Shown piece after piece: positions 3,401-50,315 of a stretch of DNA of 64,000 nucleotides. Origin of the DNA: Hormiphora californensis (lineage: Eukaryota; Animalia; Ctenophora); assembly GCA_020137815.1 (NCBI GenBank), contig CM035356.1, positions 248,001 to 312,000 on the forward strand. Direction: 5' to 3'. The position numbers and the translations under genes were made by a program. How positions within the stretch are numbered: the first letter of the stretch is position 1; each line of letters opens with the position of its first letter. The notes under the pieces are model-generated. The model worked only from the letters and a program-made list of their open reading frames with translations, searched no databases and was not told the DNA's origin.

Positions 3401-5505
3401 TTGCTATTGCTTTTTGATCCAATCAGAATAGCGGTCACATTTATCCATTGACGTAACAGAACAAGTAATCTGCCCTTTTACGGGACCTAGTTTTTACCAT
3501 GGAGAGTTGAATTTAATCGTGTGGGAGAGAGAGAAGGAGGGAGAGAGAGAGAGAGAGAGAGAGAGAGAGAGAGAGAGAGAGAGAGAGAGAGAGAGAGAGA
3601 GAGAGAGAGAGAGAGAGAGAGAGAGAGAGAGGGAGAGAGAGAGAGAGAGAGAGAGAGAGAGAGAGAGAGAGAGAGAGAGAGAGAGAGAGAGAGAGAGAGA
3701 GAGAGAGAAAGCTTTTTGTTCTACCTACCACGGAAATGGGGACCCCTGGCTACATGTTTAGCTACCATCTACACGTACTGAGTCGAAATAACTCGCACGG
3801 TAAATATCTAACCATCTAAGGAACTATATAACACCCCGCCTCCTTTTGATATCGATTCTTCTTCCTCCTCCTTTTCTTTTCTATTCTACTGGACCCCTAT
3901 CATTCTACGCAAGTCTAGAACTGCTATGCGGGTGCATAAATCGGTACAGCGATACTGTGACACTGCACTGGTGGGAAGGACAATTTTACGGCGATCTATC
4001 AAACACACAAACAAACTCTTTTCTTGAATTTTCTTTTTGGATGAGCTAGTGTAATTCCATCGAGATGGCAGAGAAAGCTTAGAATTTTATTTTGTAATTC
4101 ACTTGTGCCCCTATACAAGATTGTGGCCTCCTTCCAAGATGAAGGAGGTGTGTGAGAGAGAAAGAGAAAGAAGGAGAGAGAGAGAGAGAGAGAGAGAGAG
4201 AGAGAGAGAGAGAGAGAGAGAGAGAGAGAGAGAGAGAGATATATAGATAGAAAGATAGAGAGATAGAGAGAGATAGAGAGAGAGAGATAGAGAGAGAGAG
4301 AGAGAGAGAGAGAGAGAGAGAGAGAGAGAGAGAGACAGATAGAAAAAAAAAAGAGAGAGAGAGAGAGAGACAGATAGAAAAAGATAGAGATAGAGAAAGA
4401 AAGACAAAGAGAGAAGAGTAGTCATGACAACAGTCCATCCCTATCCAATTAGAGAGAATGCTGTAGGTTGTATTCTACCTCTCTCACTCTCATTCTACAT
4501 CACTGTCTCCCTCTTCGCTCACTCTCTCCCTCTCACTCTCTCCCTCTTCGCTCACACTGTATTCTAGCAGATCCTACTGCTGCAGCTAGAGAGATACAGT
4601 CTGTGCGATATTGGATACACCTATACAACTGCACTACATCACCAATTCCCAGGAGAGAGACTAGAGAGATAGAGACTAGAGAGAGAGATAGAGAGAAGGG
4701 AGAGAGATAGAGAGAGAGGGGAGAGAGACAGGCAGACAGAGAGGCACATGCAGATAGTGAGAGACATTGTGCTGCTTGTGAGAGAGAACTGGGCCAGCTG
4801 TCAATTATAAAACTACATAGTAATTGCGTCATGTTAGTGGCTAATAACGTAACGTGCAATTGTTCCACCCAGAACAGAAATTAGGAAGTTGTGCCCTAAT
4901 GTGCTTGTGGTCGAACTGAGGACATGTTTTTTTCGTATTTCGGGCCTTTGTTATTCTCAACCACAAATGGTGAAAAGAGGAACCGAAAAACATGTGATGC
5001 TTCAAGGACATTCCTGTCGCTTATCATAATTGTAACATTATGGTTATACGTCAGGTGTATTTCAAGAAAGAACAAATAAGAAATGACGACAGGGAAAATA
5101 CAAAAGCTAGATGGGTTCCGGTGGTGTTAACATGATTATAGATCTAGAACTAATCCTGAAAAGCTAAGAGTGTTGCCAGAGATTTCTACTTACATTGTTG
5201 TCATGATTTTGTTGAGGAATTCCCCGTCAGAGAGAGCGAACTGGTTCTTGGGTGGTCCATACTCCTCAAACGTCCTCGTTAGCTGAGCGGTGTGGTTGGG
5301 GGTTACGGTTCAGGCGGGGTGCCGTTTGGATAAGATTTGTAGAATGTGTTTGCCCAGCAGGGGGAGGGGGTGTCAAATATTGGCAGCACCCGGTCCGGGG
5401 GATTGTGAATTTTACTAGAAACAGGGAGGGGGATCAGGAATGACAATAAATTAGTTAATAACTTACCCAGATACAGATGGAACTACGTATAAATTCCTCA
5501 CCCAT
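442..5505 (-). CDS. Hook-domain protein (Girdin/Daple CCDC88 or Hook family), 5' part; continues past window start
   Basis: Hand-spliced GT-AG exons 5505-5467 ([13 protein letters not shown]), 5282-5194 (LTRTFEEY...[15 protein letters not shown]), 3253-3071 (SPARF...[35 protein letters not shown]), 2953-2895 ([15 protein letters not shown]), 525-442 ([28 protein letters not shown]) follow the N-terminal Hook/CH-like domain motif by motif; one phase mismatch at 3071/2953 suggests an indel error. Confidence 0.85.
866..1360. repeat. Intronic minisatellite, ~30-39 bp unit CCCTGAACACAGTAATACATACA(C/T)CCC...
   Basis: About 14 tandem copies visible; source of repetitive ORFs 754-1265. Confidence 0.95.
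3526..3708. repeat. (GA)n microsatellite
   Basis: Directly visible; similar (GA)n/(TC)n tracts at ~4153-4415, 26260-26595, 30300-30405, 31555-31695, 31880-31943, 46390-46512, 52033-52116, 58935-59390, 61785-61876, 63862-64000. Confidence 0.95.
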
Positions 5506-6076
5506 GATAACAGCTGCACTTCATGCCCTCTGAACAAAGAGGAAGGGGGTTGAGAGGGAGGAGTTGAGAGGAGAGTTTAGGTTGTCTTGCTTTACACACT
5601 CATACACACTCTTAGATCAAACTCACGTATTATAATCTGTAGTGGGGCTGGCGCTATTTCTCACAGTTCTCACAAATTAAAAACGAAACGAGTTGTAAAG
5701 AAAATAATAATTTTACCAAATGTATTTTAACACATATTTACATGGAGTATAATTGCTCTGTATCCAATATATTTAATTTTGTAATAACACAATGTACGAA
5801 CTTCATTAGATATATAATTAAATAAAATTAGCAGATTAAGAGATCGGGGCGATATAGAGATTGAGACATTAAATTTAACTCTGGCGTGGGATTGAAAATA
5901 CAGATTACAGACACATTTTATCTACAGATAGAGAGAGAGAGAGAGAGAGTTGTTAGACGATACCTTAACCTCCAAACTGGTCGAGATCAGGCTGATCGCC
6001 TGACAGAGAAATAGTACACAGACATGCAGAACATTTATTAATCACCTATTTACCCTTTCTCTGGGATACACATCTT

Positions 6077-49664: not shown

Positions 49665-50027
49665 ACGGCTTTGGTGGTTTTTTAGATTTTAGTTTATTGT
49701 ACCGCGTCTGAGATCGAGTTATGAATATGATACTTTGATACATTTTCTACCTTGTAAGACATGTGTTTTTGCCGACAGAGTAAGATAGGGGTACGATAAA
49801 AGTTGTTGTGATACACTGAGCTATGACCAAATCTTCACAATAATTAGTAGTTGCAACATGAAATGATGGCAAGAAAATGAAGAAACGATAACTCTTACTT
49901 CACCTACTACTCTGAGAAGTATTCAGCCCACTACTCCAGTATTTCTAAAAACTACACTTCGAATTCAGATCAACTCAAATCTACTGCCCAAACCCCATCC
50001 CTCAATTGACCCAGAAGCCAAGGTCAC

Positions 50028-50315
50028 ATGTTGGGACCACTACTTCGTATCATAGGAGCCATTGCTAGCTCAGTAGGTGCCTCAGCTGTGGCCAGGAAAC
50101 TAGCTGACCCAAATGTGGTAAATAGAATGAGTAACCTCCCGATAATGCGGATACTGGCTAGACTGGCTGTGCGGGGCAAGCTGGAGATGGAGAAACAGGG
50201 TCGGGAGTTGGGCAAGAAATCGGCACAGGAGGAGATCAAAAAGGAGAGGGGAGAGAAGGTGGTGAAGGCAGCAAGGAGAGTTAGAGAAAGGAATACAAGG
50301 ACTCCAAAGAAATAA
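50028..50315 (+). CDS. Microprotein 2, NCBP2AS2-like (tentative), 95 aa
   Basis: LADPNVVNRMSNLPIMRILARLAVRG resembles the recalled NCBP2AS2 core (PQLVERLSESRPIRRAAQL); basic amphipathic N-terminus; AATAAA ~50339. Confidence 0.6.
   Translation: MLGPLLRIIGAIASSVGASAVARKLADPNVVNRMSNLPIMRILARLAVRGKLEMEKQGRELGKKSAQEEIKKERGEKVVKAARRVRERNTRTPKK

Follow-up and report, generated by a model that had tools for sequence, protein, structure and literature searches.

Background

Trans-splicing of a spliced leader (SL) is already known in ctenophores (PMC8527503). Operons are described in C. elegans, Ciona and Oikopleura (PMC7986045), in Hydra, where leader addition frees the downstream gene of the RFC140-flp pair (PMC3273482), and in chaetognaths (PMC12460157). 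A 2021 list gives ctenophores as having leader trans-splicing, with operons and polycistronic mRNAs unreported (PMC7986045). Here we consider a 64,000-nt stretch of the Hormiphora californensis genome (assembly GCA_020137815.1, contig CM035356.1, positions 248,001 to 312,000), called the window below. Six genes in it, Nova A, Nova B, Nova C, PSMA1, PEN-2 and COPS7, follow one another on the plus strand. We argue it is moderately probable that these six are a leader-resolved operon, transcribed as one precursor.

The locus resembles each of the described systems in part. It shares with known ctenophore trans-splicing the same leader, joined at an AG near the start codon (PMC8527503). As in C. 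elegans, Ciona and Oikopleura operons, neighbouring genes share a strand, gene models are fused in a relative, and in one contig of a relative (L001, below) a poly(A) signal lies close ahead of the next acceptor. However, the medians reported for those three animals are about 100, 1 and 31-57 nt (PMC7986045), and here only some spacers are so tight while others span 0.8-3.4 kb. The Hydra operon is another non-bilaterian case in which a downstream gene is freed by leader addition, but it has two genes and was shown with a transgene (PMC3273482), whereas up to six or eight genes are linked here, from contigs and gene order only. Chaetognath operons also hold housekeeping genes, including proteasome and ubiquitin genes, reach nine genes and use no operon-specific leader. 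They are defined by gaps below 250 bp, however, and belong to an independent lineage (PMC12460157).

The words "operon" and "polycistron" do not occur in the main text of PMC8527503. The passages of PMC11184263 that were examined do not mention trans-splicing. The literature searched contained no report of a ctenophore operon. What we describe is a real feature with a known mechanism, and probably the first operon case in the phylum.

Acceptors ahead of start codons

An earlier note on this DNA, made from the letters alone, listed 15 start codons that each sit just behind an orphan 3' splice acceptor. All 15 distances from AG to ATG are correct: the best-scoring AG within 35 nt upstream lies at the claimed distance in each case. 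An AG alone is uninformative, because 88% of the 1952 other ATGs in the window also have a bare AG within 35 nt upstream. A scoring model was built from 28 internal acceptors in the window, and a pass was set at the 10th percentile of their leave-one-out scores. This level is reached at 12 of the 15 listed starts and at 201 of the 1952 other ATGs (binomial P ~5e-10). PEN-2 (2.2), a G protein-coupled receptor (GPCR) gene (1.9) and SAC3 (-4.8) fall below it. Weak scores are also found at starts outside the 15, namely microprotein 1 (-2.6), the PLAT gene (-0.9) and the ATG at 12403 (1.1). The list is partly circular, since some starts were chosen as the first ATG behind an AG. For Nova A, B and C, PSMA1, PEN-2 and COPS7 the start codon has independent backing, since orthologues begin at the same position. 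A CTAAC or CTAAT branch motif, said to accompany most of these acceptors, turns up at about half only: CTRAY occurs within 60 nt at 8 of the 15 listed acceptors, compared with 13 of 28 internal acceptors and 18% of random AGs.

The core of the plus-strand run begins with three KH genes: Nova A (17905..18852), Nova B (21620..23020, with a Pfam KH match, orthologues and an in-frame stop at 22977) and Nova C (23311..24134). Each encodes two KH domains, and "Nova" is the earlier note's label only. PSMA1 (26358..29711) matches the Pfam proteasome alpha family, with residues ~77-178 missing from the assembly. PEN-2 (30037..31117, Pfam match) has its acceptor 2 nt before the ATG and 327 nt past the PSMA1 stop. 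The short COPS7-like gene (31963..32592, Pfam PCI) has an acceptor 1 nt before its ATG. Ahead of the core, on the same strand, lie an hnRNP-type gene (12745..15101, Pfam RRM, poly(A) at 15101) and an AF10-like PHD-zinc-finger gene (16073..17679, Pfam match), whose acceptor is 3 nt upstream of its ATG. Same-strand neighbours that each have an acceptor before the start codon are one trait expected of leader-resolved operons, and this trait is found here. A same-strand run by itself is weak evidence and was given no weight.

The three Nova genes are intron-less and stand in tandem at 17923-24134. The trio is retained in Mnemiopsis, and a fourth two-KH paralogue group (P0009-P0012) is present in other species. 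Nova C matches a Pleurobrachia bachei protein without a single difference (240 of 240 residues), which marks the species of the window as P. bachei or a very close relative. The assembly looks garbled at 27600-29300, where the PSMA1 residues are missing. COPS7-like proteins of the ctenophore group have 208-218 aa and lack the N-terminal 20-25 residues of other matches; they share just 28-36% identity with the COPS7 of the window (31966-32592).

A spliced leader at hnRNP and at Nova C orthologues

RNA contigs from four mixed-sample runs (X1-X4) were aligned to positions 10500-20000 of the window. At hnRNP, 21 unaligned letters stand ahead of 12741 in contigs from two runs, X1 (study P1) and X2 (study P2). 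These match the Hormiphora leader printed in PMC8527503 at 21 of 21 letters in X1, and over the last 18 of 21 in X2. The leader's final six letters agree with the genome across the hnRNP acceptor except for one mismatch, and this places the joint at the AG at 12745-12746. Allowing up to 3 mismatches, no copy of an 18-nt leader motif exists in the 64 kb of the window. Thus a non-genomic leader, which the earlier note had named as a check, is present at this acceptor in two studies. With a limit of E 1, an Rfam scan of the window returned 17 matches; none reached its gathering score and none was a leader RNA. All but the SNORD100 match discussed below were taken as repeat noise. A 48-nt exon of hnRNP (14316-14363) is alternative: X2 has it, and X1 and X3 lack it.

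Contigs of X1 and X4 diverge from the genome 6 nt above the Nova A acceptor, an offset like that at hnRNP, with 11 and 15 unaligned letters whose sequence was not read. This is suggestive of a leader there. For Nova C, a scan of metagenome contigs for orthologues kept 3 loci (L001-L003) from 462 candidates. Two of the three, L001 and L002, have a leader 4 nt before the ATG that ends in the conserved AATTTGAG motif of PMC8527503, and these come from two other ctenophores. The 5' end of L003 is cut short. An Rfam scan of the three loci gave nothing credible. With the leader seen at hnRNP and at the Nova C orthologues, the orphan acceptors as a class are almost certainly SL trans-splice sites. 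In the long 3' region of Nova A there is a further acceptor-like site (19791-19793) at which one X4 contig begins, and RNA cover from the Nova A side extends to 20000.

One can imagine that each gap instead holds a private non-coding first exon that is cis-spliced to the acceptor, with no leader involved. Donor-like sites occur about 7 times per kb in the window, so the long gaps contain many, and some of 12085-12718, ahead of the hnRNP acceptor, is covered by RNA contigs. But the leader is observed at hnRNP and at the Nova C orthologues, and the three short gaps have just 1, 1 and 2 weak donor-like sites plus the 3' end of the upstream gene. We consider private exons very improbable.

The earlier note had left a choice between SL addition and splicing from one shared leader exon with its donor at 12428. 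The RNA at hnRNP and at the Nova C orthologues supports the first route. The second would make all plus-strand genes alternative cis-splice products of an exon-like piece at 12390..12427 on the plus strand. This piece has its own AG, an ATG at 12403 and a strong donor at 12428, which scores 5.2 against a cut-off of 0.5, and PMC8527503 did see clusters with an apparently common first exon. However, the same paper puts shared first exons down to mis-mapped leaders. The piece lacks the leader motif, its ATG is out of frame with hnRNP, and it has its own acceptor 73 nt downstream, at 12499-12500. The first protein-gene acceptor behind 12428 is that of hnRNP, which takes the spliced leader in two studies. 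Because the hnRNP acceptor carries the leader, a shared cis leader exon is unsupported, and its probability is next to nil. The piece is likely to lie within the 5' part that trans-splicing discards. A joint from 12427 is absent among the 12 listed joints of the four runs, but contigs cannot show absence and we do not count this. Bins 11768-12084 and 15255-15888, which have no RNA cover in any of the four runs, and the AF10-Nova A gap, which has no bridging piece among those listed, are likewise not counted as evidence. Between 12390 and 12500 an ATG in good context, the strong donor and a 73-nt intron-like piece together would give a 13-codon open reading frame (ORF).

A contig across Nova C, PSMA1 and PEN-2

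Locus L001, from a Bolinopsis-like species, is a 6700-nt contig that carries a leader followed by Nova C (29-868), PSMA1 (4319-5107) and PEN-2 (5672-5968). Its PSMA1 is 99% identical to that of Bolinopsis microptera. The spacers are 3445, 560 and 673 nt, after which come a further acceptor and 8 codons. All five positions that have introns in the window are joined in L001. P0028 matches the first 50 PEN-2 residues of L001 and then reads into an intron. The genome of this species must have the PEN-2 intron because P0028 runs into it, and therefore the coding parts of L001 are spliced RNA. The acceptors ahead of the genes are retained: those at 6643 and 4314 rank 1 and 2 among the 415 AGs of the contig, and that of PEN-2 at 5668 (score 1.5) is retained too. 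The PEN-2 acceptor follows an AATAAA (5582) by 86 nt, and the last AATAAA before PSMA1 is 857 nt away. Searches found no named COPS7 from Mnemiopsis or Bolinopsis. Without a named lobate COPS7, assigning the last 8 codons to that gene is a guess only.

This is the pattern that a partly processed polycistronic precursor would give. As for the polycistronic units proposed earlier, L001 and the Mnemiopsis gene order give real but indirect support for Nova C-PSMA1-PEN-2.

Gene order in other ctenophores

The comparison covered Nova A, B and C, PSMA1, PEN-2 and COPS7. Hormiphora and Mnemiopsis split about 180 million years ago (PMC12221973), and at most four collinear genes are reported between them (PMC8527503). 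The Mnemiopsis model ACHWQZ_G003451 (KAL5269979.1) fuses the orthologues of Nova A, B and C in the order of the window, with 89, 75 and 73% identity. PEN-2 is G003453 (KAL5269981.1), two tags further on, and both models are on contigs of equal size. Fused gene models are a known by-product of operons (PMC7986045). For another species, the records of the Nova C and COPS7 orthologues both list a contig of 449,826 nt. Order in related species, which the earlier note proposed as a check, is kept as far as the lobate contig (Nova C-PSMA1-PEN-2) and the Mnemiopsis models (the Nova trio and PEN-2) reach.

Spacers and CpG-rich zones

Three gaps from stop to acceptor were said to be short, and they measure 227 nt (AF10-Nova A), 292 nt (Nova B-C) and 327 nt (PSMA1-PEN-2). 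The Nova B-C gap becomes 335 nt if counted from the in-frame stop at 22977. Putative non-canonical poly(A) hexamers lie in these short gaps, 150-167 nt before the acceptor. Other spacers are long: 2769 nt for Nova A-B, 2225 nt for Nova C-PSMA1 (3445 in L001) and 847 nt for PEN-2-COPS7. The hnRNP-AF10 spacer contains an insertion of 754 nt (15139..15892) that resembles a miniature inverted-repeat transposable element (MITE), with 26-nt perfect inverted ends and a 4-nt target duplication. If this is subtracted, about 220 nt separate the hnRNP poly(A) site from the AF10 acceptor.

All three CpG-rich zones of the earlier note exist, at 7.6-8.4, 11.8-12.6 and 32.6-33.0 kb, but they are not the only ones. 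Three more intervals pass the same cut-off (18.0-18.4, 22.0-22.4 and 23.8-24.4 kb), which are coding or gene-end sequence. The first zone (7601..8400) is likely a bidirectional promoter; it lies between the divergent TTLL11 and PDZ genes and has two copies of GCGCGGCG. The second (11801..12600) is likely the promoter of the hnRNP-led unit and has GCGCGGCG plus an inverted 72-nt copy of 7989-8057. The third (32601..33000), with GCGCGGCG and ahead of SAC3, is likely a promoter too. All four window copies of GCGCGGCG are inside these three zones at cluster heads, and none is in the hnRNP-to-COPS7 spacers. A GC-rich motif with two CpGs marks ctenophore promoters and loop anchors (PMC12221973).

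The inverted copies (7989-8057 and 12073-12144) are 87% alike and lie in both CpG zones flanking the PDZ gene; the same two zones hold all seven window copies of TTCCCACG. The 11-nt word AAAGCGCTGCC, a possible promoter element, occurs only at 12216 and 33632, ahead of hnRNP and SAC3. An inverted array of 33-nt units also precedes SAC3 (33011-33584).

One precursor or a promoter for each gene?

In the scenario we favour, polymerase II would start at a CpG zone, which is likely, and the 5' part of the transcript would be exchanged for the leader, as is seen at hnRNP. Each gene end would be cut and polyadenylated while transcription proceeds. The downstream piece, left without a cap, would then acquire one with the leader at the following acceptor; the leader is there at the Nova C orthologues, and L001 is consistent with the read-through. 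We infer, rather than see, that a single molecule likely runs across the genes and that the spacers are likely free of promoters. Extending the unit to hnRNP and AF10, with its start in the CpG zone at 11.8-12.6 kb, is a tentative proposal in which we have less confidence than in the core.

The main competitor is a compact genome in which genes are transcribed from separate promoters and each loses its 5' part to trans-splicing. L001 would then come from long 3' ends that overlap the 5' part of the next gene, or from genomic DNA that bridges mRNAs in assembly, and chromatin loops would keep the gene order. The leader is on at least 56% of Hormiphora long reads, in a paper whose main text claims no operon (PMC8527503). 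The long spacers, 0.8-3.4 kb, most orthologue contigs being single-gene and the higher synteny inside ctenophore loops (PMC12221973) all fit this scenario. On the other hand, the 86 nt between AATAAA and the PEN-2 acceptor in L001 leave scant room for a promoter. L001 also spans two entire spacers and a third acceptor with five of five tested introns removed, and CpG zones with the shared GCGCGGCG motif occur at cluster heads only. We think separate promoters unlikely, although this is the scenario to be taken most seriously after the operon.

Several observations weigh against a six-gene operon. Long spacers could hold promoters, and there is CpG-rich sequence at the Nova C end (24.0-24.4 kb). 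In the species of the window leader letters are seen on one gene, hnRNP; PSMA1, PEN-2, COPS7, AF10 and Nova B showed none. L001 is a single product of assembly from a mixed sample rather than a molecule, and it could have arisen from overlapping transcription units or from a fusion of genomic DNA with mRNA. Just one of the three Nova C loci spans genes. Contigs shorter than 1.7 kb carry 9 of the 10 PSMA1 members that look like transcripts, and 12 of 13 PEN-2 members, which fits processing but also separate genes. The Mnemiopsis tag G003452, between G003451 and G003453, is outside the records seen, a fused gene model may be a prediction error, and the Nova trio among the linked genes consists of tandem paralogues. 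A missing motif or a kept gene order is no proof of co-transcription, because the GC-rich motif is at a minority of Mnemiopsis promoters and synteny is tied to chromatin loops (PMC12221973).

Other genes of the window

The gene map needs correction upstream of hnRNP. The earlier note counted thirteen plus-strand genes from 12.8 kb, all of which are present, but it missed a fourteenth. This is a spliced PDZ-domain gene (8149..11702, plus strand) supported by RNA-contig joints and a poly(A) site at 11702; its PDZ match is weak (E 0.005) and its 5' end is predicted. An intron of it contains a 6-nt unit in 108 perfect copies (9797-10444). Because this spliced, polyadenylated gene occupies 8.1-11.7 kb, the divergent point is the CpG zone at 7.6-8.4 kb. 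The layout thus differs from the back-to-back units proposed earlier: TTLL11 and the PDZ gene diverge at 7.7-8.1 kb, and the CpG island at 12 kb is in tandem, behind the PDZ gene's poly(A) site. TTLL11 (6077..7682, minus strand) is an intron-less gene with a Pfam TTL match, an acceptor AG at 7681-7682 and an ATG at 7675. Its exact sequence is absent from the protein collection searched. The first coding exon of the gene labelled Hook (5467..5531, minus strand) has an acceptor AG at 5530-5531 and an ATG at 5505.

The layout differs on the SAC3 side too: SAC3 and PCSK5 are parted by 6 kb with a minus-strand gene. SAC3 (34163..35142, plus strand, Pfam match) has a weak first acceptor. The minus-strand gene that interrupts the run (35734..38563) has a signal-peptide-like first exon and PLAT-like exons (PLAT E 0.11 only), and within it is a 616-nt perfect inverted repeat (36282-37589). 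The PCSK5-like convertase (41202..45519, plus strand, Pfam S8/P-domain) has several frameshifts in the assembly, which carries indel errors. The UBE2K-like gene (46690..48738, plus strand, Pfam UQ_con) has an acceptor 11 nt before its ATG. Two related small tandem ORFs, the microproteins, follow at 49239..50315 on the plus strand, the start of the first being uncertain. Further on, a 444-nt direct repeat (56030-56473 and 57127-57570, 98% alike) flanks a short unique stretch. There are Pfam matches for TTL, PHD/zf-HC5HC2H, two KH, RRM, proteasome alpha, PEN-2, PCI, SAC3, S8/P-domain, UQ_con and 7tm_1; for the Hook-like gene and the microproteins the Pfam search gave no fitting family.

The PCSK5-UBE2K spacer contains a C/D small nucleolar RNA (snoRNA) resembling SNORD100 (46170..46256, plus strand). 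It scores 38.5 bits against RF00609, short of the gathering threshold (58), and boxes C, D', C' and D and the D' guide align. The element may work like SNORD100 without formal membership of the family. It lies about 70 nt past an AATAAA, and no donor-like site above the cut-off follows 45775, so there is no clear host intron. For its expression one would have to assume a promoter of its own, a long intron that starts at the PCSK5 3' end, or release from the spacer. A literature search on snoRNAs in operon spacers found nothing. A C/D-box scan missed this snoRNA, returned two unconvincing matches and was not used. TTLL11-Hook and PCSK5-snoRNA-UBE2K-microproteins may be further units.

Implications

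If the operon is real, operons exist in an animal phylum that branched off early, and this matters for the question whether they are a regular outcome of trans-splicing. It would explain fused models such as Mnemiopsis G003451, and studies of promoters and loops that take annotated gene starts as anchors would need re-reading. The named, conserved six-gene cluster could be tested in existing long-read and chromatin data. A bolder reading is that ctenophore genomes are widely arranged in long operons, with eight genes over 20 kb from hnRNP to COPS7, one CpG-island promoter, kilobase spacers, an order kept over about 180 million years and a snoRNA freed from a spacer rather than an intron. We regard this as doubtful at present, but if it is true then many annotated ctenophore "promoters" would be trans-splice sites.

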